Notes: a model not told the origin generated them from the letters alone. A DNA stretch of 64,000 nt from an uncultured Gemmatimonadales bacterium (GCA_963771275.1 CAVYSW010000009.1:1-64000); one strand, 5' to 3'. Shown: positions 20,048 through 43,686, counted from the first letter of the stretch. Numbers and translations: made by a program.

Positions 20048-22601
20048 ATGGTCGGGTTGGTCGCGCTTGTCGGATTGCTGCTGAGCCCGCCGCGCGCGCA
20101 GGCGGAGCGACCGGCCGACAGCGCGAGGGCGGACCCGCCCACCGCGCGGGCCGCGCGGGCCGCCCAGCCCCCGGTGATCGACGGGCGCGATCTCGACGCG
20201 ATCTGGCGAACCACCCGCGCCATCACCGACTTCCAGGAGTGGTCCCCGACGGAAGGGAAGCCGGCGCGGTTCGCCACCGCGGCCCAGGTCGCCTACGACC
20301 GCGCGAACCTGTACGTGTTCGTCCGCTGCTTCGACCCCCACCCCGACAGCATCATCCGCCTGATCGGGCGCCGCGACGACTTCCCGCAGTCCGACCGGGT
20401 GATCCTGCTGATCGACTCCTACCACGACCGCCGCACCGGCTACGAGTTCGGCGTCACCGCCGCGGGCGGCCGCTACGACGCCGCGATCTACAACGACGGC
20501 GACGAGGACGGCGCCTGGGACGCGGTGTGGGACGTGGCCAGCCGGATCGACTCGGCAGGCTGGACGGCGGAGTTCCGCATCCCGCTCTCCCAGCTGCGCT
20601 ACGGCCCCGAGCGGGAGCACACGTTCGGCTTCGCCATCGATCGCGACCTGTACCGCTACAACGAGCGGATCGCCTGGCCGCTGTTCCGCCAATCGGCGGC
20701 GGGCATGGTCTCCCAGTTCGCCGCGATCTCCGGGTTCGACGACCTCGAGGCCCCGCGCCGGCTGGAGGCCGCCCCGTACGTCGTCACCAAGAACGTCTCG
20801 CGCATCGAGGCAAACCGCTTCGTGCGCGAGCAGGACCTCTCCCTCGGCGCCGACGTCAAGTACCGGGTGGCCTCCAACCTCACGCTCGACGCCACGATCA
20901 ACCCCGACTTCGGGCAGGTGGAGGCGGACCCCGGCGTGCTGAACCTGACCGCCTACGAGACGGTCTTCCCCGAGAAGCGCCCGTTCTTCGTGGCGGGCCG
21001 GGGGCTGTTCCAGGTCTCGATCAACTGCAGCAGCGTGAACTGCGGCAGCGACGGGCTGTTCTACAGCCGCCGCATCGGGCGCGCGCCGACCCTCGCGGAG
21101 ACGTACGGCGACACGACGTCACCCGCGTTCACCACGATCCTCGGCGCCGGCAAGCTCACCGGGCGGCTGGCGGGAGGCCTGCGGATCGGGGCACTCGACG
21201 CCGTCACGGCAAAGACGACCGGCGTGGACGGCCAGACCATCGAGCCCGCCACCAACTACGGGGTCATCCGGCTCGACCAGGACTACCGCAAGGGTGACGG
21301 GACGGTCGGCGCCCTGATCACCGCGGTCACCCGCGGCCTCGATACGTGGAGCACCCCGTACCTGCCGAGCAGCTCGTACGCGGGCGCCGTGAGCTTCCGG
21401 CAGCGGTTCTTCAACCGGACCTGGCAGGTCTCGGGCCTGGTGGCCGCGAGCCGCGTGTCGGGGAGTGCCTCGGTCATCACCGCCCTCCAGCGGAGCCCGG
21501 TGCACTACTACCAGCGGCCGGACGCCGGCCTGCCGTACGACACGACGCGCACCGTCCTGGGCGGCGACGCCGAGGAGATGAAGCTCGCCAAGGTGGCGGG
21601 CCGCCACCTGCAGCTCGAGACCGCCTGGCAGCGGCGCTCGCCCGGCTTCGAGATCAACGACCTGGGCTACCTCCAGCGCGCCGGCGCGCACAACTGGTCC
21701 ACCTGGGCCGGCTACTTCGACCGCCACCCGCGCACGCTCTACCAGAGCTTGCAGTGGAACTGGAACTGGTGGCAGATCTGGACCACCGAAGGCCTGCCGC
21801 TGGAGCGGGCGGCCAACACCAACCTGAACGTCACCCTGCGCAACAACTGGAGCATCCACTTGAGCGGGACCCTGGGCCAGCTCGGCGCCACCTACGACGA
21901 CCGCGCGGCCCGGGGCGGGCCCGCCGTGCGGCAGGATCCGTACGTGGCGCCGGGGATCTACATCAACGGCGACGACCGGCGCCGGCTGGTGCCGTATCTC
22001 TCGGTAAACGGCTTCCGCGGCGGGGCCGGGCATGCACACTCCGTGAGCGTGGGCCCCGGGCTCGATCTCAAGCTGTCGAGCCGGCTCGCGGTATCGGCGT
22101 CGCTCGACTGGTCGAAGAACGACAACGGCTACCAGTGGTACGGCAACGCCACCGACTCGCTGGGGCAGACCCACTACGGCTTCGCCCGCCTCCGAGCAGA
22201 CGACGGAAGGGATCACCGCGCGGATCAACTACACGATCACGCCGACCATGACGCTCCAGGTCTACGCCCAGCCGTTCGTCTCGAAGGGGACCTACAGCGA
22301 CCTGCGCGAGCTGTCGGCGACGCCGCGCGCCGCGCGGTACGACGACCGCTACCAGCCGTACTACGACGCGGCGACGGCGGCCGACCCCGGCGGGTTCAAC
22401 TACAAGCAGTTCCGCTCCAACGCGGTGTTCCGCTGGGAGTACCTGCCCGGCTCGATCCTGTTCGTGGTCTGGACCCAGGGCCGCCAGGGCGCGGTCGGCG
22501 AGGAAGGGGCCGCGAGCTTCTTCGGCGACCTGCGCGAGCTGTTCCACCTGCGCGCCGACAACACGTTCCTCGTCAAGCTCTCGTACTGGCTCAACCGGTA
22601 G
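20048..22601 (+). CDS. CBM9-like/DUF5916 outer-membrane protein, frameshift near 22195
   Basis: Signal peptide, PVIDG, WTAEFRIP, LDATINPDFGQVEAD, FPEKRPFF, C-terminal FLVKLSYW. Confidence 0.85.
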
Positions 22602-22703
22602 CCGCGACGGCGGGAGGATGTCGGGGGCCGCATCTCGATGTATCATGAATTGCAGTCACGAATACTCAATATTCAATGATGAATGCTCAAATGAGGAGCA
22701 GGC

Positions 22704-27888: not shown

Positions 27889-30800
27889 TCAGTTGCCGAA
27901 GCGCGCGCGCCAGAAGCCGGCGACCGTCGCGACGCTCCCCTCGGTGATGCGGGCGCCGAGCGTGACGAAGGCGCCGTGCCCGCCGCGGACGGCGAAGTCC
28001 GGGTCGCGCAAGTCGCCGAACCGGTAGCCCGCCGCCACCTCGAGCACGTCGATCAGCCCGACCGCGAGCGACGGCGCGACATCCCACCGCGCGGAGCTGC
28101 TGGTACGCTCGATCAGCAGGCGGCCCTCGGAGCGGAACGTGAGGAACGCGTTGAGCCGCAGCTCGGCCCGGGCGCCGGCGTAATCGGCCCGGGACTCGAG
28201 CCGCTGCAGCGTGCTGTCTTCGTGCTGCCGGTCGGCGGCCGTGCGCCGGATGGCGTAGCGGCCGGCCAGCTCCACCCGGCGGGTCGGCGTCCAGATCAGC
28301 TCCGCCGCGCCAATCAGGCGCTGCTCCTGGCCGAGACTGGTGAGCACGCCCCGATCGAGCGGATTGGTCTCGTCGAGCCACGAGAACTTCGTGAGCACGT
28401 GCACCGCGTCGCTTCGGATCGGGCGGAACGCGACGCCCCAGAGTGACGCCACGCGCCGGCTGTTGCGGCTGCCGGTCGCGAGCGCCTGCTCGGTGCGCAG
28501 CAGCTCCTGGCGGGACAGGATGGCGAGCGAGCGGTTGATCGACACGTCGCCGGCCAGGGTCACCAGCCGCGTGGACAGCCGGTCGCCGTCGCGGTACTCG
28601 CCCCGCCCGGTCACGCGATAGGGCGCGCCCGCCGGCAGCAGCTCGACGCCGCCACTCACCGACCAGTAGTCCTCCTCGTCCTGCAGGAACGGCAGGGCCC
28701 GCACCGGATCACCCGGGTCGGCGCCGCTCACGCCGAAGCGGCGCTCGAACATCGTGTTGACGGTCCAGGCCGACCCGAGCCGGAGCCGGTTGTTGAGGCC
28801 GATCACGGCGGCGTTGTAGCGCGCGCCCGCGCCACCGGCGAGCTGGTACGAGCCCCACGCCTGCGTGCCGAAGCCCAGCTCCGACCGGACGCCGATGTTG
28901 GTGACGCCGTACGACTGGTCGTCGGGCAGCAGCGCGAAGCGGTGCCGCAGCTCGAGGCTCACGTTGTCGGTGAGCTTGAGGCCCGCGCCCGCGCCGATCT
29001 GGTTGGGGCGCACGAGGCTCTCGCTCGCGCCAAGCTGCTGGCGGCCTTCCGCCCACAGCCGGAGGCGCGGGAACGGCGTCCAGCTCAGCTTGCCCTCGAG
29101 CGCGTTGGATCGGTCGCCGTCGGCGCCGTTCTCGAAGCTGTCGAGCGCGTCGGTGGCCTCGACCTGGAAGTGCGCGCCGATCGGCTGCACGACGCCGAGG
29201 CTCGTGCGCCGCCGGCTCACGGCCTGGGACGCGGAGCTGAAGTACTCGTGCTGGGCGCGGAACGTCGTCCCCGTGGCGGCGAACCGGTAGCTGCCACCCG
29301 CCTTGAGCTCCGCGGTGCCGGCACGCAGCGCGATGTTGGACGGGTTGCCGAAGCCGTCGCCGATCTTCATCCAGGCGGCCGAGAGATGCAGCGCGCCCTG
29401 GAACAGATCGGCGGACCCGGTGAGCGACGTCGCGAGGCCGCTCGAGTCGGGCGCATGCGAGTAAGACAGCTCAGCCCCCAGGTCCAGCGCCTTCGTCTTC
29501 AGGAGCCGTACGTCGACGCCGGTCAGGTTGAACGCGCCGGTCGGCTCGTCGGCGTGAATCGCGCTCACGCCCAGCCGCAGCGAGTCGAGCCCACCCAGGC
29601 CGGACCGGGGCAGCGCGCTCACCGACGCGCGCAGCCCGCCCACCAGGCGACTGGCGCCGCCGCCCCGCCCCTCGTACGTCACCACGAGGAAGACGGGGTT
29701 CTCGTTCTCGTCGGCCGCCGGGACGGGGCGCTTGAACAGCAGCGTGCCGGTCTCGTAGTCGATCTGGTAGTCGACGAACCGCACCAGCCCCTGGCGCGTG
29801 ACGACGCGCTGCGGATTCTCGCGATCGCGCGTCTCGACCACGATCTGCTCGCTGGTCGGGATCGCGGCGCCACCGAGCGCGTACGGCCCCGAGACGCCGG
29901 CGCCGCGGATCTGCTCCTGCCGCAGGCTCTGGCTGGTGAGGCTCGCGAACCCGCGCCACGCGACCGGACCCGTGGTGATCTGCGCCATGCCGCCGGACAG
30001 CGCCCGGCGGTAGGCGGCGAGGCTCAGGCCCTGCGCGAACTCGGCGGTGGCCACGTCGCCCACCGTGAGCCAGTCGAAGCCGCGCTCCACGCGGGCCGAC
30101 ACCGCGTAGCGCGACGCGCTGAGCGTGCGCACCGCGCTCGCGTCCCCGAGGATCGGGTATTGCGCCTCGTCGAGCGGATCGTAGTCGCGCCCGAAGTTCT
30201 CGCGGCCGGCGTTGAGCCGCCGCGAGTCGACACTCAGCACCACCGACGTGCGCGCGTCGAGCCGGCCCCGGGCGGTGAGCGCGCCGTAGGCGTCGGGCGC
30301 CGCGCCGACGCCGACCCGCCCAACCGCGGTCACCATGAGGGGACGCGCCGCGGGCAGGGTCTCGAGCGGGCGCTCGTACATCGCGTCACCCGTCCGGAGC
30401 GTGAGCCGGCCCCGCGTCACCACGAACCCCGGCTTCACGTCGACGGTGAGCCAGCCGAGGGAATCGCTCTGGAGCTGGAGGCCGACCGACGAGGGATCGC
30501 TGTCGCCGCCCGACACGTCGGCCCCGTCCACCGTGACGGTGACGTCGGTCGGCGTCACGACCGGCACGCCCCACCGGTCGAGCAGCCGCACCCGGACCGG
30601 CGCGACCGTCTGGCCGTCGGCGGTAAGCTGCAGCGCGCCCGTCGGTCCCACGAGTGTCGCCGGAAGGCCGCTCACGTGCACCGCGATGCTGTCCCAGCGC
30701 TCCTGGTTCCAGGTGTTCCGCAGGGCGACCCGCAGGCGGTGCGGTCCCGGCGTGAGTGGGACGGCGATGAAGTCGTGGATCCCGTCCACCCGGACATCAC

Positions 30801-33800
30801 CACGAGCGAGCACCGTGTCACCGTCGTACAGCGTGACCGGCTGGCCCGGCTCGCCCCGCACGCCAATGAAGACGCGGTCGCGCGCCGTCACCGTCCCGTC
30901 GGTCAGGCCGAAGATCCGCACCGCCGGCCCCATGAGGAACGCGTTGCGCGCGTCCGCATCCCGCTCCGCGTCGGTGCGCAGGGTCGGCACCACGACCGGC
31001 TCGGCCACGACCCGCGCCGCGACCGGCGCCAGGGCAAGTGTGACGGGGCCCGGCGCGTCGCTGGCCTCGCGCGCGACGCCGGTGGCGGGGGTGAGCGAGT
31101 CCACGACCGCGGTCGCGATCCGCCCGGCGCTCTGCCCCGCGATCTCCAACGTCGCGTATGCGGAGTCCGCCGATCCGGTGGTCCAGGCGGTGAGGGCGAG
31201 CCGGGTTCCCGGCGCGAGCGCGGGCAGATCGAGCGGTCCATCCACGGTGGGCACCGGCGCCTCACCCATCACCAGCCGCACGGAATCCACCGGGGCCCCG
31301 AACCGCACGGCCAGGCCCTCGAGCGGGCGATCGCCCGGGTTCGCGATGGTGACCGTGTACTCGGTCACGGGCGGCGCGGGCGGAGGCGCCTCGGCAGGGA
31401 GCACCGTCGCCACACCCCGCACGAACGTGGCGGTCGTGCTCCGGCTCGCGCCCGGCACGAGGCGCATCTCCACCCGACGATTCCGTGCCCGGCCTTGCCG
31501 CGTGGCATTCGAGACGGCGGGCCGGTCCGGCCCGTAGGCCAGCACGGTCAGGCGCGCCGCGTCCACGCCCTGCGACACGAGGTAGTCGGTCACCGTCGTG
31601 GCCCGCTCGAGCGAGAGCCGCAGGTTCAGACTGCGCGGTCCTTCGGAGCTGGTGTGACCCGCGATCTCGACCCGGATCTCCGGACTCGCGTTGAGTAGCG
31701 CGGCGAGCTCGTCGAGGACAGGACGGGAGGCGGCGGTGAGCCGCGACTGGGCCAGCTCGAACGTGACCGGCAGGACCCAGATCGGCACGGCGGGGACGGC
31801 GGCGGTCACCGAGTCCGGCTGGCCCGCCACGGCGGGCTCCGCCGGGGGCTGGGGAACCGTGTCGGCGGCCGCGGCGACGGTGCGCGCCCCGAAGCTCCAC
31901 GTCAGCGGCACCCGCGCGCGCTCCACGCGCGCCGCGCGCGGTACGAGCCGGAACTGCACGATGGGAGTGGTCCAGCCGCCGGCGTCGCGCGTCACGATCT
32001 GGTCGGACGACGCGATGCGGTAGTCCGCCGGCACCGTCGCCGGATCCAGCCGAAAGGCGTGACCGCCGGCCCGGACGTTCTGGAACGAGAACTTGCCGTC
32101 GGCGTCGGTCGTCGCCACTTCGCCATCGTCGGTCCAGACGTCGAGGCCGGCCACGCCCGGCTCGTCGCCGCTCTGCACGCCGTCGCCGTTCCGGTCGAGC
32201 CACGCCTTGCCGATTACGGCCCGGGTCTCGAGCGGCCAGCTGCTGCGCAGGCGGACCCACGCCACCTGCATCGGCGCCGTGACGCCGCCGCCTTCGGCGG
32301 TCGCGTACGCGCGGTTCTCGATCACCTGCTGCTCCGCCGACACGATGGCCACCTGGTAGCGCACCGTGTGGCTGGCGCCGGGGGCGAGCGGCCCGCTCCA
32401 GAAGAACGTGAGCACCCGGCCGTCCACGTGCACCGAGTCCGCGCCCAGCGCGCTCCCCGTGGCGTACCGGCCGCCCTCGGGCAGCGAGTCCACGACGCGG
32501 AGATCGCCGAGCGGGTTGTCGCCGGTGTTCTGGAGCACCAGCGTGTAGGGCACGGTCTCGCCGAGCCCGACCTCGAGCACGTCGGCCGACTTCTGGAGTC
32601 CGAGCTGGTTGGGCAGCAGCCCTACCAGCACGACCGGGGCGGAGAGCGCGGCCGCGGGCGGCGCGTTGGCGGCCGCGACCACCGCGACGTTGCGCACCGT
32701 CACCGTGTCGCGGACCTGGTCGGAGACGCGCACCGTGAGCGCGACGCTCACGGAGTCGCCGGGCGCGACGTCGCCCATCGTCCAGGAGAGGACGCCGCCG
32801 CTCACGGTAGCGGCCGGTGCGGCGGACACGAAGTCGAGGCCGGGCGGCAGCGTGTCGACCAGCGTGACAGCGCGCGCCGGCATCGTGGGCGAGCGGTTCG
32901 CCGCGACGAGCGCGTAGAGCACCTGCTCGCCGATGCGCGCCGTCACGGGGCCCAGCAGGGTGTTCGCGAGGCCGAGCTGCGCGTGCACCACCGTGGTCAC
33001 GGCGGTGTTGGACGTCACCGAGTCGGCGCCGGCGAGCGTGCCGTAGACGGCCCCTGCGCGGTTGGCGATCGGCGTCTGGTCGGCGAGCCCGTTGGCGATC
33101 CGGACCTGGAAGGCGAGGGTGCCGCGCTGCCCACTCGGCAGGTCGCCGAGCGCGAACACCACGCGGTTGCCGGCCGGATCGAACCAGGCGGCGTCGTCCC
33201 CGACCGCATCGGTCAGCGCGGTGCCGCCCCACGTCAGCGACCCCGCGATGTAGGTGGCGCCCGGCGGGATCGGATCGCTGACGACCAGACTCGTTGCCGG
33301 GTTCGTCCCGCTCACGTCGCAGGTGAGCGTGTAGCTCAGCACGTCGCCCGTGGTCGCGGTGGTGCGATCCACCAGCTTGGCGAGCGTCACGAGCACACCC
33401 GCGTCCGGGACCTGCAGCACGTCGAGCACCGCGTCGGCGGCGCCGTCGAACTCGCTCACCGCCGTCACCGTCACCGTGTCGGTCGTCCCGCGGACGGTCG
33501 GGGATCCCGGCACATCCACGGCGGCGAGCACGGACGCGACCGCGCCGGCCGCGAGCGTGAGCCCCTGGATCGCGGGATCCGAGGCGTCGAGCACGCCGTC
33601 GTCGTTGAGGTCGCGGTACAGGGTCACCGCCCAGCCGGTTCGCGACACGGCCGCGAGGCGCAGGCTATCGGTCCCGTTGCCGACGTTCGTGACGGTGTGG
33701 GCGAAGACGACACGGCTGCCGGGGTTGGCCGTCGCGGCGCGCGGCGGCGCCAGGTCGACGCCACCCACCTGGGCCACGGTCACCACCAGCACGTTGGAGC

Positions 33801-33987
33801 GCGCGGTGAAGGTGAGTCCGTTCTCGGCCACGTAGGTAGCGTCGGCGACGTTGGAGATCTGGGTGCCCGCGGGCGTCGGGCCCTGGGCGAGCAGGTCGGT
33901 GCCGATCAGGCACAGCACGAGCGCGGCCCCGAACAACGCCATCCCGGGCCGCGACGCGCTCTGCTGGTTTCGGTGTGACCTGCTCAT
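27889..33987 (-). CDS. Large outer-membrane protein: DUF11 repeats, SdrD B-like, OmpA-like, Ig-like and C-terminal beta-strand-rich region
   Basis: Signal peptide; three DUF11 units; WLDRNGDGVQSGDEPG; IAGHTSSEG...NLRLSLERA...NRRVE; long amphipathic-strand C-terminus ending FWRARFGN. Confidence 0.85.
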   Translation of the reverse strand: MSRSHRNQQSASRPGMALFGAALVLCLIGTDLLAQGPTPAGTQISNVADATYVAENGLTFTARSNVLVVTVAQVGGVDLAPPRAATANPGSRVVFAHTVTNVGNGTDSLRLAAVSRTGWAVTLYRDLNDDGVLDASDPAIQGLTLAAGAVASVLAAVDVPGSPTVRGTTDTVTVTAVSEFDGAADAVLDVLQVPDAGVLVTLAKLVDRTTATTGDVLSYTLTCDVSGTNPATSLVVSDPIPPGATYIAGSLTWGGTALTDAVGDDAAWFDPAGNRVVFALGDLPSGQRGTLAFQVRIANGLADQTPIANRAGAVYGTLAGADSVTSNTAVTTVVHAQLGLANTLLGPVTARIGEQVLYALVAANRSPTMPARAVTLVDTLPPGLDFVSAAPAATVSGGVLSWTMGDVAPGDSVSVALTVRVSDQVRDTVTVRNVAVVAAANAPPAAALSAPVVLVGLLPNQLGLQKSADVLEVGLGETVPYTLVLQNTGDNPLGDLRVVDSLPEGGRYATGSALGADSVHVDGRVLTFFWSGPLAPGASHTVRYQVAIVSAEQQVIENRAYATAEGGGVTAPMQVAWVRLRSSWPLETRAVIGKAWLDRNGDGVQSGDEPGVAGLDVWTDDGEVATTDADGKFSFQNVRAGGHAFRLDPATVPADYRIASSDQIVTRDAGGWTTPIVQFRLVPRAARVERARVPLTWSFGARTVAAAADTVPQPPAEPAVAGQPDSVTAAVPAVPIWVLPVTFELAQSRLTAASRPVLDELAALLNASPEIRVEIAGHTSSEGPRSLNLRLSLERATTVTDYLVSQGVDAARLTVLAYGPDRPAVSNATRQGRARNRRVEMRLVPGASRSTTATFVRGVATVLPAEAPPPAPPVTEYTVTIANPGDRPLEGLAVRFGAPVDSVRLVMGEAPVPTVDGPLDLPALAPGTRLALTAWTTGSADSAYATLEIAGQSAGRIATAVVDSLTPATGVAREASDAPGPVTLALAPVAARVVAEPVVVPTLRTDAERDADARNAFLMGPAVRIFGLTDGTVTARDRVFIGVRGEPGQPVTLYDGDTVLARGDVRVDGIHDFIAVPLTPGPHRLRVALRNTWNQERWDSIAVHVSGLPATLVGPTGALQLTADGQTVAPVRVRLLDRWGVPVVTPTDVTVTVDGADVSGGDSDPSSVGLQLQSDSLGWLTVDVKPGFVVTRGRLTLRTGDAMYERPLETLPAARPLMVTAVGRVGVGAAPDAYGALTARGRLDARTSVVLSVDSRRLNAGRENFGRDYDPLDEAQYPILGDASAVRTLSASRYAVSARVERGFDWLTVGDVATAEFAQGLSLAAYRRALSGGMAQITTGPVAWRGFASLTSQSLRQEQIRGAGVSGPYALGGAAIPTSEQIVVETRDRENPQRVVTRQGLVRFVDYQIDYETGTLLFKRPVPAADENENPVFLVVTYEGRGGGASRLVGGLRASVSALPRSGLGGLDSLRLGVSAIHADEPTGAFNLTGVDVRLLKTKALDLGAELSYSHAPDSSGLATSLTGSADLFQGALHLSAAWMKIGDGFGNPSNIALRAGTAELKAGGSYRFAATGTTFRAQHEYFSSASQAVSRRRTSLGVVQPIGAHFQVEATDALDSFENGADGDRSNALEGKLSWTPFPRLRLWAEGRQQLGASESLVRPNQIGAGAGLKLTDNVSLELRHRFALLPDDQSYGVTNIGVRSELGFGTQAWGSYQLAGGAGARYNAAVIGLNNRLRLGSAWTVNTMFERRFGVSGADPGDPVRALPFLQDEEDYWSVSGGVELLPAGAPYRVTGRGEYRDGDRLSTRLVTLAGDVSINRSLAILSRQELLRTEQALATGSRNSRRVASLWGVAFRPIRSDAVHVLTKFSWLDETNPLDRGVLTSLGQEQRLIGAAELIWTPTRRVELAGRYAIRRTAADRQHEDSTLQRLESRADYAGARAELRLNAFLTFRSEGRLLIERTSSSARWDVAPSLAVGLIDVLEVAAGYRFGDLRDPDFAVRGGHGAFVTLGARITEGSVATVAGFWRARFGN

Positions 33988-34019
33988 GGCATCCGCGCTC
34001 CAACGCACAGGCGTAAAGG

Positions 34020-34035
34020 GCACGCTACATGCCAG
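34020..34035 (-). promoter_or_regulatory. Sigma-54 (-24/-12) promoter
   Basis: CTGGCATGTAGCGTGC, GG-N10-GC, just upstream of ATG 33987. Confidence 0.75.
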
Positions 34036-34125
34036 CTCGTGCGCTCTGAGAAATCATCTAAAACGTTATTGATAAACGACTTAGAAACTGACGATTGGGC
34101 TACAACTCGTCCGTCACGGCCGGGG

Positions 34126-34152
34126 GTTACCATTGGTAACCGGCCTGGTAAC
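34126..34152. promoter_or_regulatory. Putative enhancer (bEBP binding site), copy 1
   Basis: GTTAC-CATTG-GTAAC-CGGCCTG-GTAAC. Confidence 0.7.
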
Positions 34153-34291
34153 GACGCTCGTGCCAGGCACTTGGGGGATCCGGTGCGGGGCGGGAGAAAA
34201 GACCGAGGCGGCCGCCTCCGACCCTTGAGATCGGAGAGCGACCGCCCGGAAGGGAGTCGAGCTGGAGGCCGCCCTCAGGCGGCGGCGCGGT

Positions 34292-35536
34292 CTAGTTCAC
34301 CCGGGCCTGGATCCAGAAGAACCGGGTCGCGCCGGCGCCGAGCGCCACTGTGAGATCGGCATCGACGTCGTTGCCGCTGTTGGCCAGCGTCCACCCGGCC
34401 GAGCCATCGTTGGCCAGCGCGAGGAACGTCAGCTCCGCCGGCAACAGATCGTCCACGTGCACGCTGGTGGCGTTCTGGTCGCCGGCGTTGGTCACGCTCA
34501 CCCGGTACCAGATCACCTCCTGCGGGACGACGCGGTCGGTCGGCCCGATCACGGTGACCTGATCGCTGCGATACACCTGCTTGGCGATGGTCACGCGCGG
34601 GCGGATCACCGTGAGGTCCACGTAGCCGTTGTCGAGCGTGGCCGGCTGCGTCACCGACCGCGCCACCAGGTAGAGCGTGTCCCGTGACCCAACCGCGACC
34701 TCGGCGACCGTGTAGGTCACGTCGATGGACACCGACCCGCCGGTGGGGATCGTCACCCGCGTGCTGTCCGGCGGACCGGCCACGCCATTCACCGTCAGGA
34801 TGCCGATCACGACCGACCCCGGACTCGACGCGAGCAGATCGAACGCCTCGGCGGCGTTGCCGGTATTGTTCACGGTGAACGTCTCGGTGTAGGCCGATGC
34901 CCCGCTCGGCAAGCGCTGGCGATTGACGCCACCGTCCGGCGTCACGGCCACCCCGTAGGCCGCGGGCGGCGAGATGTTCGTGGTCGCGGCATCGCTCATC
35001 GTGCCGTCACGCTGCGATGTCGCCGTCAGCGTGTAGCCGGTGGTCTGGCCCCCCTGGCCGGCGTTCACGTCGTAGATCACCGTGACGGTGAGCGATCCCG
35101 TGATGCCCGCCAGCGACTGCGTGAGCAGCGCCGTGTTCAGCGCCGCCACGCTCGCGTAGACGGTCCCCACGCCGTTGATCTGGTATCCGGTCACGGTGAT
35201 CACCGCGCCGTTCGAGATCGTCTCGCCGACCTGCACCGTGTCGGTGCCGTTCCCGATGTTGGCCACCGTGAACGTGATCGATTGGCCCGACGAGGGCGAC
35301 GCGGGCGTGACCGACGCCACCCCCGTCACGTCGAGACCGGCCTGGAAGCCCACCGTGACCGACACCGAGGCGCTGTCGGGCGCATACAGCCGTCCCGTCG
35401 CATCGCGGTAGTTCACGATCGCCTTGTTGGTGATGACGGTTCCCTCAGGCGTTTGCGCCCGGGCCGGGACGGTCACCATGGCCACGGCGACTGCCGCCAA
35501 CGCCACGGCGCGCATCATCCAATTCGAGTTTCTCAT
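34292..35536 (-). CDS. Secreted DUF11 protein, putative major fibre subunit
   Basis: GGAGG RBS, signal peptide, N-terminal QTPEGTVITNKAIVNY, Ig-like repeats, terminal DUF11 ending FWIQARVN. Confidence 0.85.
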   Translation of the reverse strand: MRNSNWMMRAVALAAVAVAMVTVPARAQTPEGTVITNKAIVNYRDATGRLYAPDSASVSVTVGFQAGLDVTGVASVTPASPSSGQSITFTVANIGNGTDTVQVGETISNGAVITVTGYQINGVGTVYASVAALNTALLTQSLAGITGSLTVTVIYDVNAGQGGQTTGYTLTATSQRDGTMSDAATTNISPPAAYGVAVTPDGGVNRQRLPSGASAYTETFTVNNTGNAAEAFDLLASSPGSVVIGILTVNGVAGPPDSTRVTIPTGGSVSIDVTYTVAEVAVGSRDTLYLVARSVTQPATLDNGYVDLTVIRPRVTIAKQVYRSDQVTVIGPTDRVVPQEVIWYRVSVTNAGDQNATSVHVDDLLPAELTFLALANDGSAGWTLANSGNDVDADLTVALGAGATRFFWIQARVN

Positions 35537-35586
35537 GTTCGCCTCCACTCTCCCCCCTCAGGTGTTTACCGTTGCTGCGTAGCGCT

Positions 35587-36123
35587 TCACCGACTGGCCG
35601 CGCTGGTATCCGGCCGCGGCTCCGCCCCAGGCAGCCGCGCCCGGAACTCGGCCGTCACCTGGGCGCCGGGCTGCACCCAGCCCTGCACGGTCCAGCGGAC
35701 ATGCGTGTAGCGTTGCACCGGGGCCGGCCGCTGCTGCGGCTTCCCGTCCACCATTACCTCGATCATCGGTTGGGCGGAGAATGTGGCTCCGCCGTCGATG
35801 GAGTACTCGATCAGCGTGTCGTCGCGATCCGTTTTCGCCGACGCGATGACGTAGCGCAGGCCGGACGGGATCGGGTCTTTCAGCTCGATGCTGCGCACTG
35901 GTGTGGCGTTCAGGTTGGTGAACACGAGCCGGTACTCCACGACATCGCCCGGCAACAGCGCGTTCGAATCGGCGAGTCCACGATGTCGCTCGTCGCCCGC
36001 CATGAGATTCACCGCGGTGATGACGAGCGCCTGCGGCTCGCGCTGTTGTGCCGCGACGCGCATCCCCGCCGCCGCCACGACCAGCCCCGCGACCAACCCC
36101 GCCTGCAGTAGTCTCGTGCTCAT
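35587..36123 (-). CDS. Small secreted single DUF11-like protein
   Basis: Signal peptide; LPGDVVEYRLVFTN, LKDPIPSG, YSIDGG, YTHVRW, AEFRARL. Confidence 0.85.
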   Translation of the reverse strand: MSTRLLQAGLVAGLVVAAAGMRVAAQQREPQALVITAVNLMAGDERHRGLADSNALLPGDVVEYRLVFTNLNATPVRSIELKDPIPSGLRYVIASAKTDRDDTLIEYSIDGGATFSAQPMIEVMVDGKPQQRPAPVQRYTHVRWTVQGWVQPGAQVTAEFRARLPGAEPRPDTSAASR

Positions 36124-36308
36124 GACTCGGTCTCCTCCGTGCTGCGTCGGCTGGTCCGGCCCCACTTGGCCTTGGCACGCTCCGGTGCGCCTTGCGCCTC
36201 CTGCCATGCGAACGGCACTTCGCACCCGTGGCAGATCACCCATTTGCCCGAGAAATCCCCTCGAGCGTAGTGCGTGCTCGTTCCGCAGTGTGGGCACCGC
36301 AACACCAT
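36120..36308 (-). CDS. Small zinc-ribbon protein (62 aa)
   Basis: MVLRCPHC...VICHGC; AGGAG RBS; ATGA overlap with the next gene. Confidence 0.65.
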   Translation of the reverse strand: MVLRCPHCGTSTHYARGDFSGKWVICHGCEVPFAWQEAQGAPERAKAKWGRTSRRSTEETES

Positions 36309-36346
36309 GTGCGACTCCTGTCGTCCAGCTGTTCGGCCGCTAGGGA

Positions 36347-36362
36347 AGCACGGGCCATGCCG
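36347..36362 (-). promoter_or_regulatory. Sigma-54 (-24/-12) promoter
   Basis: CGGCATGGCCCGTGCT, GG-N10-GC. Confidence 0.7.
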
Positions 36363-36459
36363 GGTGGCGAGCATCGACCAATATCGTCGTAAGGTATTGT
36401 CATAAATCGTCTTACAGAGATGCCAACCAGGCAGACTGTCTGTCGCTGCGGGATGTCTG

Positions 36460-36486
36460 GTTACCGAAGGTAACGGCCGGGGTAAC
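36460..36486. promoter_or_regulatory. Putative enhancer, copy 2
   Basis: GTTAC-CGAAG-GTAAC-GGCCGGG-GTAAC. Confidence 0.7.
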
Positions 36487-36517
36487 GCGAGATCGGAACC
36501 GGGCTGGTCGAAGGGGA

Positions 36518-38818
36518 CTACTTGATCCGGGCCACGTACTGGAACGTGCACGTGTTGTTGGGGGCCACCGCGCTCAGGTCGTTGAGCAGCATCCAGCGGA
36601 TCCGGTTGACGCACCCATCGTAGCCCGCCAGGGCCCCGCAGCCGAGCGACGCGGGGGTGTAGGTCCACGTCGCGCCGGCGTCGTTGGAGTACGCGACGGC
36701 GGTACTCACACCGGGCGGCAGCGTGTTCACCACCGATCCGACCTTGAACGTCACCTGCCCGGCGATCGAGTCCACCACGGTGACCGCCACGGCATCGATC
36801 GTCCCGGTGTTGACCGCGTCGATCAGATAGGTGAGATCGGTTCCCGGCGCGACGGCCCCACTGGGATTCGCGCTGCGGCTGATCGTCACTTTCGGTCCGC
36901 CGGAAATCGTGACGTCCTCACCCGTGCTCGATGCCGGAGCGTATGCGGCGCTGGTGGTGCCCGCGGCCGTGGTGCGCGCCGGATCGAGGTAGATGGCCCG
37001 CGCCGGATTCTGATAGGTGCCATTCGGCGTGGCGGCGGCGATGTTGGCGGTGAACGTGAGGCGCACGCTGCCGCCACCCGGGATGGAGAATGTGCCCCAG
37101 GTTGGGATGGCCGCCCCGACGGCAGGGTTCGTCGTGCTGGGCCGGGAGGCGCCCCCGCTGAAGACCGGCGCCGCGGTGGACGCGTAGGTGAACCCGGTCG
37201 GGAGCGTGTCGGTGATGGTGAGCGTCCGCGCCGTGTCGCGACCCGCGGCGTTCGCCACCACGACGGTATAGGTCGCCGTGGTCCCGGAGGGGGAATAGGT
37301 CACGGACGGCGTCGACGTGGTCTTCGTGACCGTGAGTGCCGGGACGCACGCGGCGCCGGCCGACGTGCCCGGAATCTGATTCGCCGTCAAGGTCGCGACG
37401 GAGGATCCGGACGCGCCGGCGGTGGCGTTGAACAGATTCCCGGGCGAAACCGTGTATCCCGGAGCACCCCCCGCGACGTCGACGGATGCCGCGCCGGAGA
37501 GCGCGACGAACCCGCCACCACCACCAGCACCGGGACCATGCGGGACCCCTCCGATGTGGGCGTTCCCGCCATCGCCGCCCCGCGCCTGGACACTGAGGCC
37601 GGCGAGCCCGCCGCTGGCGGCATACACGACGACGCTGCCGCCGGCGCCCCCGCCGCCGCCGCCGTCATTCGCGGGCGTGTTCCCCACCTGTCCATTGGCG
37701 CTGATCGCGCCGACGCCGGTCACGCTCCCGGCGCGGATCATCACGATGCCACCACCCGCGCCACCCGAGCTGGCCGTGCCCGAGGAGTTGTTGCGGGTGC
37801 CCGCTCCACCACCGCCCCCCAACACGATCAGGCTAGCGGCGGCGGGGACGCTCGCGCCCCCGCGTCCCCCCACCGCGAGATTCGAGTTCCAGGAGTTGCC
37901 GCCGCGGCCCCCCGCACCCGCATTCCCACCGCCGCCACCGCCGGAGTTCTCGTCGTTGGCGGAGGGACGTCCGTCGGTGCCACCACCCCCCGCGTTTCCC
38001 GGCGCGCCCCGCGCCGTGCTGCCGTTGGGGTATCCCTCCGTGCCGTTGTTGATCAGCGCCGCCGTCACGGGATCGACCACGTAGCGCGGCATGCCCGCGA
38101 TGCCCTCGCCCTTCGACCCGTGGAAGTTGTACGTGGCGAGGTTCCGGTAGTCGGTATTGGAACCGCCAGACCCTCCCGTGAGCCCCCGGCCGCCACCGCC
38201 GCGAAATCCCTTGGCGTCGACGCTCACCGTGCCACCGAGCGTCAACGTCCCGGCGACATCGATCGCGAGAATGCCGCCGGTGGCCCCATTCCAACCCGAC
38301 GCCGTGAGGCCGGAGCTGAGCGACGCGCTGGAGTACTGCGGGACGCGGACCACCTGATAGCGCCGCTGGCCCTGCGATCCCGTGGCCGCCGCGTTGGTGT
38401 AGGAGTAGTTCAGACCGTTCCCTGTCCCGGTTCCCCGGAAGGTGACGGTGCCGCCCGCGAGGCCGACGGTACTGGTCGCCGTCACGTACTCGTACCGGCC
38501 CGCGTTGTTGAGGCTGGTCGCCCCCGCACCGGACCCGTTGTTGGCCCCGTACGCGCTCGAGTTGGTGGAGTTGATCGCCGCGTCCTGCATCTGGATGATC
38601 AGCAGCAAATCGCCCGGCGTGATCCCCACGCTCGCCCCCGTCGCGGACCCGACCACGAGCGACGTGGCGCCCGCGGCGAGATTGGCGGTGGAGCCGGGGA
38701 AGTACGTGTTGACGATGCCGCTGAGCACGCCACCGGGACCGTCCTTGCCCGGGATGCCGCAGACCTGGGCTCCCGCCGGTGTGAGGGGCACGGACGCGAG
38801 CAGCAACGCCACCGTCAC
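36518..38818 (-). CDS. Secreted glycine-rich DUF11 protein, putative tip adhesin (start uncertain)
   Basis: Signal-like N-terminus, GDLLLIIQMQ domain, many poly-Gly runs, two DUF11 units, ends FQYVARIK. Confidence 0.85.
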   Translation of the reverse strand: MTVALLLASVPLTPAGAQVCGIPGKDGPGGVLSGIVNTYFPGSTANLAAGATSLVVGSATGASVGITPGDLLLIIQMQDAAINSTNSSAYGANNGSGAGATSLNNAGRYEYVTATSTVGLAGGTVTFRGTGTGNGLNYSYTNAAATGSQGQRRYQVVRVPQYSSASLSSGLTASGWNGATGGILAIDVAGTLTLGGTVSVDAKGFRGGGGRGLTGGSGGSNTDYRNLATYNFHGSKGEGIAGMPRYVVDPVTAALINNGTEGYPNGSTARGAPGNAGGGGTDGRPSANDENSGGGGGGNAGAGGRGGNSWNSNLAVGGRGGASVPAAASLIVLGGGGGAGTRNNSSGTASSGGAGGGIVMIRAGSVTGVGAISANGQVGNTPANDGGGGGGAGGSVVVYAASGGLAGLSVQARGGDGGNAHIGGVPHGPGAGGGGGFVALSGAASVDVAGGAPGYTVSPGNLFNATAGASGSSVATLTANQIPGTSAGAACVPALTVTKTTSTPSVTYSPSGTTATYTVVVANAAGRDTARTLTITDTLPTGFTYASTAAPVFSGGASRPSTTNPAVGAAIPTWGTFSIPGGGSVRLTFTANIAAATPNGTYQNPARAIYLDPARTTAAGTTSAAYAPASSTGEDVTISGGPKVTISRSANPSGAVAPGTDLTYLIDAVNTGTIDAVAVTVVDSIAGQVTFKVGSVVNTLPPGVSTAVAYSNDAGATWTYTPASLGCGALAGYDGCVNRIRWMLLNDLSAVAPNNTCTFQYVARIK

Positions 38819-38923: not shown

Positions 38924-38939
38924 AGCAGGACATGTGCCA
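38924..38939 (-). promoter_or_regulatory. Sigma-54 (-24/-12) promoter
   Basis: TGGCACATGTCCTGCT, near-consensus TGGCAC-N5-YTGC. Confidence 0.8.
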
Positions 38940-39084: not shown

Positions 39085-40455
<1,371 letters not shown>

Positions 40456-40527
40456 GAGCGCAATACTTGTGCGACAGGCCAGCAATTACAAGGGCTTACG
40501 TGCCCGGGACCCCGGAGCGGGGCGGCG

Positions 40528-40911: not shown

Positions 40912-41269
40912 GCTACCAATCCCGGCTGATCGCGCGGCCGCACGGCAGGCCCTGGACCGGGAGTTTGCCGCCGGTCTGAGCGAGCGGACCGCGGTGCTCC
41001 GGGCCGCGCTCGCGGCGTGCGCGGACGTGTTCGCGGCGGCCGAGGTCGAGGCACTCTACTACCGCGCACACGCCCTGAAGGGCACGGCGGCGGCGTATGG
41101 GGCCGATGAGCTGGTGGAGCCGGCGGCCCGCCTCGCCGGCATCGGACGCGGCTGGCTGGAGCGGCGGGCCACCGTCGCCAGTGAGCGCGCCGCGGCCGTT
41201 GCGGCACTCGGCGACCTGGAAGCCGCCGTGGCCAGCTACCGCACCCGGATCGGCGCCACCACCCTGTGA
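40904..41269 (+). CDS. Hpt phosphotransfer protein
   Basis: AHALKGTAAAYG. Confidence 0.88.
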   Translation: MPELPIPADRAAARQALDREFAAGLSERTAVLRAALAACADVFAAAEVEALYYRAHALKGTAAAYGADELVEPAARLAGIGRGWLERRATVASERAAAVAALGDLEAAVASYRTRIGATTL

Positions 41270-43686
41270 CCACACCGCCGCCGCGCGCCGACCGGGCCGC
41301 CGAGCGCCTCGAGATCGTGGGCGAGCTGGCCTCGCTGATCAACACGACGTTCGACCTCCACGAGATCTTCCGGTCGGCAATCGTCAAGCTCCGGCGCGTC
41401 CTCCCGTTCCGGCGCGCGAGCGTCACCCTCCTCTCGGACGACGGCGACCACTACCAGCTCCACACGCTGTATGACGGCGCGCGGGGCGGTTTCCAGGACG
41501 CCGAGCAGCGCTTCCCGCTCGACTACGGCCTGCCGGGGCAGGTGATCCGCTCGGGCGAGGCGATGCGCGTGGACGCGTTCGGCGGGACCGAGGGGATTCG
41601 CCAACCGGGCGAGGGCACGATCTCGGCGCTCATCCTGCCGTTGCGGGTCGACGGAGCGGTGATCGGCTCGCTCAATCTGGGGGCGGAGGAGTCGCTGCGG
41701 TACGGGGACGAAGATCTGGAGCTGGCGCGGCTGTTGGGCCGACAGATCGAGACGTCGCTGCATTACTCGAAGCTGCTGTCCACCATCGAGCGGCAGCGCG
41801 TGGATCTCTCGGCCGAGCATGCACGGGTGCAATTACAGCAGGTCCGGCTCGAGGCGCTGGTCGAGGCCGGGGGCTCCGCGATCATGATGGTCGATGGCGG
41901 GAGGGTGGTGCACGCCAATCGCGCGATGGCCGGGCTGCTGGGCCTGCCCCTCGAGGTCGTCCGCAGCGCCCCGCTCGATCACGTGCACCGGGCGCTGGCA
42001 CGTTCGCTCCGGGACCGGGCAGCCCTCGACGCCCAGGTAGCGGCGATCCAGCCCGGCGGCGAGCCGCTGCGGGATCAAGTCGATCTAGTGTTCCCGCGCC
42101 CGCGCACATTCCGCCGCACCGTCGATCCGGTCGTGAGCCGGTACGGTGAGCCGATGGGGCACCTCGTGGTGTACCGGGACGTCACCCGCGCGGCCGCCGC
42201 CGAGGCCGCGAAGGACGAGTTCGTCTCGATGGTGAGCCACGAGCTGCGGACCCCGCTGACGTCGATCAAGACCTCGCTCAGCCTGCTCACTCGCGGGGCG
42301 GCCGGCCACGTGACAGAGGCGATGGCGGAGTTCATCGCCATCGCGCTCCGCAACCTCGAGCGACTGATCACGCTCGTGGACGATCTGCTCGACCTCTCGC
42401 GGATCGAGAGCGGGCGCCTCGTGACGCACGTGGTGCCGACCTGCGTCGGCGACGTGGCCGCCCACGCCATCGAGATGGTGCGCGCGTTCGCCGACGACCA
42501 GGGCGTCATCCTGGAGTGCGACGTGCACGCGCCGTGCCGGCCCGTCCTGGTCGACCCGGCGCGTCTGGAACAGGTCTTCGTCAATCTGCTGTCGAATGCC
42601 ATCAAGTTCTCGCCGCAGCGAGGGCGGGTGGCTCTGCGGTGGACGGAGGAAGCAGGTGCCCTCGTCACGGAGATCTCCGACGAGGGTCCGGGCATTCCCA
42701 AGGAGCAGCTGGGGGTCGTGTTCGACAAGTTCCGGCAACTCGAGCCGGCCGCGACCCGCGGGCACGGTGGCGTCGGACTTGGGCTCTACATCAGCCGTGC
42801 CATCCTCGCGCAACTCGGTGGCGACCTGTGGGCGGAGAGCGAGGGAGGGCGCGGAACACGATTCTATGTGAAGCTGCCGCTTGCGACCGAAGCGCCGTCG
42901 ACGGCCGCGCCCTCGCAGGACGTCCAGCCGGCGGCAGCGGCCGTGCGGCGCGCGCTCCTGGCGGTCCCGGATCCCGACTTCGCCCTGCTGGTCCGGACAC
43001 AGCTGGAACAGGATGGCATCAGCGTCGAGCTGACCTCCAGCGGCTGGGCTGCCCTCGGCGTGGTCGCGCGGGAACCGCCCGACGTGGTCGTCGCCCACGC
43101 CGAGTTGGAGGACATGCACGGGCTCGAGTTCATGCAGCGCCTCCGGTCCCGACCGGAGGCGGCGAACCTGCCGGCCATCCTGGTGGGCGGCGACCCGATG
43201 CCGGCGCAGGCCATTGCATACGGCGCCGACGCCTGGCTCGCCGCCGATCCCGCCAGCGTCGCGGCCGAGATTCGCCGATTGGGCACGACCCCCCGACGGC
43301 CCGTGATCCTGTTCGTCGAAGACGACCCCGCCGTCCGCGGCGCGCTCGCCCGACTGATCCGGCGGCAGGGGTACGCGGTGGTCGAGGCCACCCACGCGAC
43401 GTTGGGGCTGGAGCTGGCCCGGCGCCGGGTGCCGGACGCGGTCGTGGTCGATCACCACCTCCCGGGGATGTCCGGTCTCGACCTCTTGCGCGCGATGCGG
43501 GACGACCCCGCGTTGGCTGCGGTGCCGGGACTCGTGCTGAGCGGGCACGCCACGCCACAAATCGTGCGTGACGCAGCGGCGCTCGGCGCCGAGTTCCTCC
43601 CCAAGCCCATGGACTGGACGGTGATCGCGCAGGCCGTCGCGCGCCTCATTACGGACCCGAGCGCGCGCCCTCCGTTCGCCCGCTGA
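41266..43686 (+). CDS. Hybrid histidine kinase GAF-PAS-HisKA-HATPase-REC-REC
   Basis: SHELRTPLT, NLLSNAIKFS, DEGPGI, GVGLGL, two receiver-like domains; no TM helix seen. Confidence 0.93.
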   Translation: MTTPPPRADRAAERLEIVGELASLINTTFDLHEIFRSAIVKLRRVLPFRRASVTLLSDDGDHYQLHTLYDGARGGFQDAEQRFPLDYGLPGQVIRSGEAMRVDAFGGTEGIRQPGEGTISALILPLRVDGAVIGSLNLGAEESLRYGDEDLELARLLGRQIETSLHYSKLLSTIERQRVDLSAEHARVQLQQVRLEALVEAGGSAIMMVDGGRVVHANRAMAGLLGLPLEVVRSAPLDHVHRALARSLRDRAALDAQVAAIQPGGEPLRDQVDLVFPRPRTFRRTVDPVVSRYGEPMGHLVVYRDVTRAAAAEAAKDEFVSMVSHELRTPLTSIKTSLSLLTRGAAGHVTEAMAEFIAIALRNLERLITLVDDLLDLSRIESGRLVTHVVPTCVGDVAAHAIEMVRAFADDQGVILECDVHAPCRPVLVDPARLEQVFVNLLSNAIKFSPQRGRVALRWTEEAGALVTEISDEGPGIPKEQLGVVFDKFRQLEPAATRGHGGVGLGLYISRAILAQLGGDLWAESEGGRGTRFYVKLPLATEAPSTAAPSQDVQPAAAAVRRALLAVPDPDFALLVRTQLEQDGISVELTSSGWAALGVVAREPPDVVVAHAELEDMHGLEFMQRLRSRPEAANLPAILVGGDPMPAQAIAYGADAWLAADPASVAAEIRRLGTTPRRPVILFVEDDPAVRGALARLIRRQGYAVVEATHATLGLELARRRVPDAVVVDHHLPGMSGLDLLRAMRDDPALAAVPGLVLSGHATPQIVRDAAALGAEFLPKPMDWTVIAQAVARLITDPSARPPFAR

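Follow-up and report, generated by a model that had tools for sequence, protein, structure and literature searches.

A four-gene operon with split DUF11/CLIPPER domains in an uncultured Gemmatimonadales bacterium, a candidate donor-strand fibre system

Described fibres and the operon under study

In chaperone-usher pili (Fim, Pap), the tip protein ends in an acceptor, the N-terminal extension of a shaft subunit completes the incomplete immunoglobulin-like (Ig-like) domain of the previous subunit, and the operon includes a large outer-membrane barrel. In the engineered pairs SpyTag/SpyCatcher and SnoopTag/SnoopCatcher, a CnaB domain that is cut before its reactive strand re-forms its isopeptide bond in trans. 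Here, we describe an operon of four co-oriented genes encoding a tip protein, a small protein, a shaft protein and a giant base protein. It lies on the minus strand of a stretch of 64,000 nucleotides (nt) with 70% G+C, hereafter the window, from an uncultured Gemmatimonadales bacterium (GCA_963771275.1 CAVYSW010000009.1:1-64000). We propose with moderate confidence that the products of this operon form a fibre of the envelope or cell surface, assembled from several subunits with split DUF11/CLIPPER (CnaA-like) domains, which would be partly self-locking and anchored on the giant protein.

The layout of tip, shaft and putative barrel is alike in chaperone-usher pili and in this operon. Unlike in these pili, the subunits here are three-domain DUF11 proteins, two strands would be donated instead of one, a covalent lock is possible, and the candidate barrel protein doubles as a donor subunit and carries a wall-binding domain. 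Moreover, neither a PapD-like chaperone (PF00345) nor an usher (PF00577) was detected in the host genome (3.86 Mb, 96.71% complete, one such locus), the controls being positive in E. coli. Sortase-dependent pili of Gram-positive bacteria and the engineered split domains resemble the proposed system in that covalent fibres are made from Ig-like domains bearing isopeptides. Unlike in sortase pili, there is no LPXTG end here, the acceptor proteins terminate in a truncated domain, and no sortase gene (PF04203) was found in the host genome with a search whose controls were positive in three Gram-positive genomes. Unlike in the engineered pairs, the split occurs in nature and affects a CnaA-like domain.

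The DUF11 family (PF01345) has been renamed CLIPPER and classed as CnaA-like (Costa et al. 2025, PMC12617251); the CnaB-type label used in a preliminary description of the window was thus wrong. In the crystal structure 9IFR, from Acinetobacter silvestris, an intramolecular isopeptide joins Lys715 to Asn806, with Asp748 as the catalyst (PMC12617251). The single-chain CLIPPER adhesins share with the operon the domain family, the Lys/Asp/Asn triad and the arrangement of an adhesive head on a CLIPPER stalk with an OmpA-like anchor. They differ in that their bond is formed within one chain, whereas the domain here is cut before the Asn strand; since this strand stands on another secreted protein, any bond would be intermolecular. 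The available text of Costa et al. (PMC12617251) describes intramolecular bonds only, and neither 'donor' nor 'split' is used in it. A literature search, with most subscription journals outside its scope, retrieved no publication on split CLIPPER/DUF11 subunits or on such a fibre.

Nearest in mechanism is BsaA of Clostridium perfringens, a member of the TasA family for which 'donor-strand exchange and lock' was described (Kivimaki et al., bioRxiv 10.1101/2024.11.04.621531, PMC11580942). According to the accessible part of this report, the N-terminal strand enters the next subunit, the N35-K74 lock forms under E56, and mutants lose oligomers. BsaA and the proposed system would thus have in common a donated N-terminal strand, an Asn-Lys isopeptide, an acidic catalyst on the acceptor and the lack of a sortase. 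BsaA would differ in its fold, which is TasA/camelysin-like instead of CnaA-like, and it differs in its Gram-positive, one-membrane host and in being a homopolymer without a tip, a small acceptor or a barrel/OmpA base; the TasA/camelysin family was not among the Pfam matches of the four proteins (E<=0.01), and the likeness to such fibres is one of mechanism. In the thread formed by Saci_0406 of Sulfolobus acidocaldarius, donor-strand complementation is combined with a bond from Asn57 to the N-terminal amine between subunits n and n+2, as stated in the accessible text of Gaines et al. 2022 (PMC9715654). This thread is alike in its head-to-tail donor-strand complementation, its proposed inter-subunit isopeptide and the absence of a sortase. 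It is unlike the operon in that its bond does not link Lys to Asn within a completed domain, its fold is type-1-pilin-like, its host is a one-membrane archaeon, and the sequences are not related.

Division of DUF11 domains between exported proteins

The N-termini of all four proteins are signal peptides closing in A-x-A-Q or A-Q-G. The shaft protein (414 amino acids [aa]; 34292..35536, minus strand, as are all coordinates of the operon) is built of a signal peptide (1-27), a donor hairpin (28-63), Ig-like domain 1 (64-192), domain 2 (193-312) and domain 3 (313-414). The hairpin (35348..35455) starts with QTPEGTVITNKAIVNY at residue 28, just past ARA, closes with SASVSVTVG and holds Asn37 (codon 35426-35428). 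Domain 3 (34295..34600) is a truncated DUF11 acceptor with Lys319 (codon 34580-34582; VTIAKQV at 315) and Asp363 (codon 34448-34450; VDDLLP at 361), and the chain terminates in FFWIQARVN, before the Asn strand, with FWIQARVN at 407-414 as its C-terminus. Its DUF11 match spans positions 10-81 of the 114 profile positions, and the protein stops 12 residues on.

The giant base protein (27889..34023; a 2044-aa open reading frame [ORF], likely starting at Met28) opens with a signal peptide and, right behind it, a donor hairpin (aa 49-85; 33769..33879) that runs from PTPAGTQISNVADATY at residue 49 to SNVLVVTV and includes Asn58 (codon 33850-33852). An Ig-like domain and three complete DUF11 domains (208-575) follow, with the peptides LADQTPIANRAGAVY at 313, VRDTVTVRNVA at 437 and EQQVIENRAYA at 564. 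In the contiguous DUF11 domain 1 (aa 208-346; 32986..33402), we found the Lys (VTLAKLV), the Asp (VVSDPIP) and the Asn (TPIANRAG), and DUF11 domain 3 likewise has all three in cis. In addition, the N-terminal region of the giant aligned with positions 13-180 of the shaft profile (E 1.2e-12).

The Gly-rich tip protein (766 aa; 36518..38818) comprises a short signal peptide, a Gly-rich N-terminal domain, a complete DUF11 domain (aa 495-619; TPNGTYQNPARAIY at 597) and a C-terminal, truncated DUF11-type acceptor (aa 640-766; 36521..36901) that terminates in FQYVARIK (759-766, the C-terminus) without an Asn strand. Its Pfam matches are DUF11 at 495-608 and DUF7507 at 642-708. The position of the first-strand Lys is taken by Arg648 (codon 36875-36877; VTISRS at 644), and the Asp of VVDS is kept. 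The small protein (35587..36123) is likely 178 aa long, counted from Met59 of a 236-aa ORF (35587-36297), and consists of a signal peptide and one truncated DUF11 acceptor domain. Its first strand (ALVITAVNLM) lacks the Lys, its Asp is kept (KDPIP), and it ends in EFRARL (217 in the ORF) and a variable tail, here of 14 aa. None of the three C-terminal domains (shaft, tip and small protein) has the full Lys-Asp-Asn set for an intramolecular isopeptide. The DUF11 scores were 116.1 bits for the giant, 39.4 for the tip and 33.1 for the shaft (cut-off 24.6); the small protein remained below this cut-off with 19.8 bits and was above that of TIGR01451 (40.7 bits; cut-off 24). All 12 peptides quoted in the preliminary description were found at the positions that it led us to expect, and its residue readings were right as well: Lys and Asp in the shaft, Arg in the tip of this genome, and no Lys in the small protein.

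We then scanned one genome per species for related loci. Among the 289 stretches that matched, 121 encode a relative, and 80 loci were kept, of which 79 are of Gemmatimonadota lineage and one (L038) is labelled 'uncultured bacterium'. The strongest new evidence came from gene fission and fusion at the predicted boundaries. At 11 loci (L001, L005, L013, L020, L022, L026, L035, L051, L052, L059 and L074), the first ~310 aa of the giant are a separate 'adapter' protein with the C-terminus ...GTVTFQVRVG(G), just short of the Asn strand. The next ORF overlaps the adapter by 26-208 nt (stop-to-stop) in a different frame. It encodes a typical signal peptide (e.g. ...RRALRRLVLAAAVLAPAPLSAQ), and the mature protein begins with the missing strand pair (TIVNNTAAATYETIAGTDSVASNSVQTT); at one such junction, AQ is directly followed by AVVSNTAAATYETIGGTDSV. 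In the giant of the window, the corresponding residues run on contiguously (LADQTPIANRAGAVYGTLAGADSVTSNTAVTTV). The insertion of a signal peptide at the junction rules out a mere frameshift error. Moreover, the triad of the split domain was kept, with the Lys in nine of 10 readable adapters and the Asn in 10 of 11 donors. The gene for the rest of the giant begins within the 3' end of the adapter gene, so that part of the coding sequence of the new signal peptide lies over the adapter's last strands.

The reverse arrangement was observed in two diverged lineages, at L019, in the independently assembled P0023 (683 aa) and in the diverged P0122 (672 aa). In these proteins, the truncated domain of the shaft is joined to the adapter hairpin by a short linker, with no signal peptide in between (junctions FFWIRV-VPPVSSQ-VPLGTEIRSVVQASY and FFWIRVALVN-DAL-AGTQISTPVVSTY); K319 is replaced by Q or A, and the donor Asn is replaced by S or T. 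As a set, the variants show that a single domain can be whole, split over two exported proteins or joined again, and that the break always falls at the proposed boundary.

The split was also strongly conserved. Shaft homologues numbered 416 at E<=0.001 among the 8000 candidates scored; among the 120 matches listed, nearly all were 394-427 aa long, and the named ones were Gemmatimonadota. In the 77 loci with a full-length shaft, T29, E31, T33 and I35 were invariant. Position 37 was N in 74 of these loci, D in two (L022, L035) and S in one (L057); position 319 was K in 75, Q in L019 and V in L058; and position 363 was D in 76 and N in L024. The shaft ended at the same truncated residue as in the window in 75/77 loci. 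With a mean column entropy of 0.99 bits, versus 1.70-1.77 for the three domains, the hairpin (aa 28-63) was the most conserved segment of the shaft. Near-invariant positions across the 77 loci and a C-terminus kept in 75 of them show that this pattern is not due to chance. The split-domain anatomy and its strong conservation are thus confirmed, and trans-complementation of split DUF11/CLIPPER domains is well supported by the comparison.

The gene order was similarly constant. A scripted count placed the small gene immediately upstream of the shaft in 72 of the 73 loci with room for it; the sole exception, L019, is an artefact of the script caused by the fusion ORF, and the small gene is present there. 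A giant or adapter gene stood immediately downstream of the shaft in all 62 loci with enough sequence. An upstream tip-like protein with a truncated acceptor was found in 50/61 loci, and elsewhere in the locus in several others. This synteny, together with fission and fusion at the proposed boundaries, backs the division of roles put forward in the preliminary description, in which the tip is an acceptor only, the shaft both donor and acceptor, and the giant a donor only. A tip-type acceptor gene lies downstream of the giant in L020, L023 and L025 and on the opposite strand in L002 and L079; in L020 there is a tandem pair of tip-type genes, each with Glu replacing Asp.

The tips of different loci have only their last ~125 aa in common. 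L018 alone matches the tip of the window at full length, Gly-rich head included, and the heads are otherwise unrelated between genomes (L001-L080); the tips would thus carry variable heads on a common acceptor, as in tip adhesins. The head of the window's tip (37349-38764) is AgmC_N-like, with 125.8 bits under a cut-off of 275. In six loci (L004, L052, L065, L069, L075 and L077), the C-terminal part of the tip resembles domains 2-3 of the shaft, and P0218 is a protein of this kind that has another N-terminal part and a single complete DUF11 domain. In the alignment of the small proteins (74 loci), the first strand reads L.(V/I)TA.N without Lys, and the Asp of DP(I/L)P is kept. By its sequence, the small protein is a conserved, Lys-less, truncated acceptor domain; the role of a chaperone or cap that was earlier ascribed to it is speculation.

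Putative lock residues at the joints

Next, the putative lock residues were compared at each joint. The tip acceptor alignment comprised 62 rows from 60 loci. Here, the first-strand Lys position was K in 38 rows, N in 16, H in two, and R, D, S and E in one each, with two gaps; the Asp was present in 59 rows, and all rows reached the C-terminal end except that of L013, which was one residue short. The donor position of the base or adapter, counted in 67 loci after a shaft mis-hit (L050) had been dropped, was N in 39, S in 11, A in nine, D in three and another residue in five. Since K319 and N37 of the shaft are near-invariant while the tip Lys and the base Asn vary, K319 and N37 would pair with each other, and a contact of shaft with shaft would follow. 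Indeed, a meeting of K319 with N37 is the simplest reading of their joint conservation and argues for such a contact.

An alternative is a fibrillar adhesin of defined length, built 1:1:1 from tip, shaft and base by trans-complementation, with no addition of shaft on shaft; it would be a multi-chain version of the single-chain CLIPPER adhesins. Consistent with this, the operon persists in the fusion lineage (L019, P0023 and P0122), where the shaft acceptor is occupied in cis and a shaft polymer is therefore impossible. The accessible text on the adhesin of Acinetobacter silvestris also reports that a single chain combines head, CLIPPER stalk and OmpA-like anchor (PMC12617251). The counts given above make this alternative unlikely: K319 and N37 are kept in 75/77 and 74/77 loci, although the hetero-partners lack the matching residue in ~40%. 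Moreover, K319 is lost where a shaft-shaft contact is impossible and otherwise in L058 only.

Strand exchange in trans could also be non-covalent throughout, with Lys, Asp and Asn kept for packing and no isopeptide between chains. The stability of chaperone-usher and type V pili, which are not covalently linked, counts for this view, and hetero-joints often lack the Lys or the Asn. In addition, the available text of Costa et al. reports many CLIPPER domains without the triad (PMC12617251), and in that on BsaA the N35A oligomers are stable in sodium dodecyl sulfate until heating (PMC11580942). We nevertheless regard a purely non-covalent exchange as quite improbable, since it is exactly the three triad positions that are near-invariant across the split. 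Where Asp replaces Asn (L022, L035), a Lys-Asp isopeptide would still be allowed. Furthermore, Lys and Asn are lost together once the backbone itself joins the parts, as in the fusions. We thus infer shaft homopolymerisation and a covalent Lys-Asn bond from the alignments. In this genome, the shaft-shaft joint (K319-N37) and the shaft-base joint (K319 with N58 of the giant) could be covalent, and the tip-shaft joint would be non-covalent (Arg648).

The comparison with a structure of known bonding pointed in the same direction for two residues. Chain 9IFR_A was the only sequence match in the PDB to DUF11 domain 1 of the giant, and it was a weak one (E 0.085); a PDB sequence search with the three DUF11 domains of the giant gave nothing at E<=0.01. 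In the alignment, the Lys of VTLAK falls on Lys715 and the Asp of VVSDP falls on Asp748. Asn806 of 9IFR would lie within VVNKV, which resembles the ITNKA of the shaft.

Proposed assembly, its setting and its meaning

In the assembly that we favour, the acceptor proteins would end in a CLIPPER domain without its last two strands, and the donor proteins would start, behind the signal peptide, with the two missing strands. Once the subunits had been exported by Sec, the hairpin of each would complete the truncated domain of its predecessor. The chain would run from the tip (variable adhesin head and acceptor) through the shaft (donor and acceptor, probably in several copies) to the giant base, which would combine a donor with an OmpA-like wall anchor and a probable outer-membrane barrel. 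Given a first-strand Lys on the acceptor and an Asn on the donor, a spontaneous Lys-Asn isopeptide would form under catalysis by the Asp of the acceptor, as inside ordinary CLIPPER domains. Docking in trans in this genome is likewise inferred, as are the position at the cell surface and any part played by the small protein.

Behind its DUF11 domains, the giant contains SdrD_B (607-675), an OmpA-like peptidoglycan-binding domain (aa 754-849; 31477..31764; Pfam OmpA, 6.5e-20), further, unassigned Ig-like parts and a C-terminal region of ~700 aa without a family. The last 694 aa (27892..29973) are a candidate outer-membrane beta-barrel. No Pfam family was found for them, and no PDB sequence match lay under E 0.17. 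The nearest ESM Atlas clusters are unnamed, and one of them (score 0.94) has Porin_4 in 33% of its members. The C-terminus is conserved among giants (YRFG.L.DPDF.V.GG.G.FVT...FWR.RF; 27892-28030 in the window), with Phe as the final residue in 26/48 loci, and this end segment looks like an outer-membrane insertion signal. With the ESM Atlas neighbours and the C-terminal motif as leads, a barrel is probable.

A bolder version of the proposal, which we put forward only tentatively and consider doubtful, is that the operon represents a further class of pili of two-membrane bacteria, free of sortase, chaperone and usher. Halves of CnaA-like isopeptide domains, as natural tag/catcher halves, would polymerise and cross-link unaided after Sec export. 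The giant would be terminal donor, wall anchor and outer-membrane conduit at once. The Lys-less small protein would reversibly hold donor hairpins in the periplasm, a chaperone in the reverse sense of PapD.

Several observations weigh against the assembly that we favour. The first concerns the place of the hairpin in structure predictions. The AlphaFold2 model of the shaft monomer had a predicted local distance difference test (pLDDT) score of 89.9 and a predicted template modelling (pTM) score of 0.70, with the hairpin strands (34-41 and 54-61) at pLDDT ~91. We had expected a drop when domain 3 was left out; instead, the hairpin stayed confident in the fragment 1-192 (pLDDT 86-96), so that pLDDT cannot tell the docking site, and the modelled monomer may hold the hairpin on itself. 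This outcome does not favour a free hairpin and leaves room for a refuting condition named in the preliminary description, a strand folded into its own first domain. The shaft could then be a self-complemented monomer, with the hairpin on its own domain 3 (as a ring) or on domain 1, and the operon would encode four separate envelope proteins whose motifs go back to common descent. This reading agrees with the confident hairpin in the monomer with or without domain 3 and with the full-length pTM. It also agrees with the closed donor-strand forms of TasA-like and tat-fimbrial subunits in the accessible part of PMC11821415.

Such a monomer is, in our opinion, very unlikely, since the tip has an acceptor without a donor and the giant has a donor without a truncated domain. 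Moreover, fission puts the acceptor and its strands on two secreted proteins, and the fusions place the base hairpin, not the shaft's own, behind domain 3 of the shaft. That the hairpin belongs to the fold of domain 1 is further argued against by the matches of this domain to known folds (Ig/MG). Among the matches listed for the 1-192 fragment against 48,161 chains, 50/50 start at residues 59-67 and cover 64-192 (best match: Z 10.6, root mean square deviation [rmsd] 2.6, 119 aligned). The fold of domain 1 is thus complete without the hairpin, which is not part of it. Foldseek and VIA-align searches with the full shaft model returned generic multi-Ig matches (integrins, complement, macroglobulins, AgI/II) that were uninformative on the hairpin, since their ranges name the first and last residues only. 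Domains 2-3 resemble the C-terminal domains of AgI/II (Z 10.0, rmsd 4.5, 213 aligned), and 9IFR was not among the matches listed.

Coevolution gives the favoured assembly slight backing, but the weakness of its signal, like that of the profile alignments of the hairpin, counts against it. Mean-field direct coupling analysis of 235 sequences (effective number, Neff, 120 for 414 columns) revealed strong couplings inside the hairpin (36-56, 38-56). Pairs >0.8 numbered 13/1780 between hairpin and domain 3, versus 6/2119 with domain 1 and 7/2080 with domain 2. This enrichment is weak (Fisher p 0.038 and 0.070) against an inter-domain background of 2.8-4.5 per 1000; the coupled pairs of hairpin and domain 3 include 58-320 and 56-361, beside K319 and D363. 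The mature N-termini of the shaft and the giant resemble the Asn strand of the complete domains. A hidden Markov model (HMM) built from 46 complete copies of DUF11 domain 1 of the giant aligned the N-terminus of the shaft with positions 86-124 and that of the giant with positions 109-132, Asn on Asn; these alignments of hairpin to Asn strand are weak (i-E 0.015 for the shaft and 0.28 for the giant in a 4-sequence search). The 39-40-aa hairpins alone matched no Pfam family at E<=10. Further points on this side are that the Lys and Asn of the lock are not universal at hetero-joints, and that the fusions probably stem from one old event and were thus counted as a single observation. In addition, the stalk could be periplasmic, given the position of the OmpA-like domain between it and the putative barrel. 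Finally, the occurrence is patchy, with a shaft in 19/201 sampled genomes of the phylum and in 12/98 genera, which marks an accessory system.

The shaft-bearing genomes are almost all in one family, and G023 and G151 each have a second, partial match. Directly upstream of the tip in the window, an NtrC-type sigma-54 activator (39085..40485, minus strand; Pfam Response_reg, Sigma54_activat and HTH_8), a response regulator, is the probable regulator of the operon. A homologue on the same strand ahead of the tip was found in 38/80 loci, many others being too short upstream to tell. Beyond the activator lies a divergent GAF-PAS hybrid histidine kinase (41266-43686, plus strand), with homologues in 27/80 loci. 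A TGGCAC-N5-CTGC box with one mismatch (38925-38939, minus strand), 107 nt ahead of the tip start, was considered as a sigma-54 promoter and rejected: the window has 48 sigma-54-like matches versus 57 expected, and the strict pattern occurs in 1/36 related intergenic regions, so that no promoter is claimed. A few genes downstream of the giant, the other strand encodes an 866-aa CBM9-like and DUF5916 protein (20048-22648, plus strand).

Taken together, the sequences would place this system among the donor-strand fibres whose lock is autocatalytic; covalent locking and polymerisation are plausible parts of it. If this is true, Gram-negative-type bacteria would need neither sortase nor usher nor ATP to make covalent fibres, with a self-crosslinking domain shared out between one subunit and the next. 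The idea of 'exchange and lock', which has so far been put forward for the thread of an archaeon and for a TasA-like protein of a Gram-positive bacterium, would be extended to another fold and another type of envelope, and a set of unannotated 'DUF11 repeat protein' operons would be explained. The joints would also offer natural, orthogonal tag/catcher pairs for protein engineering, locking or non-locking according to the Lys and Asn at the joint, and the fission and fusion variants are ready-made constructs for tests of the mechanism.

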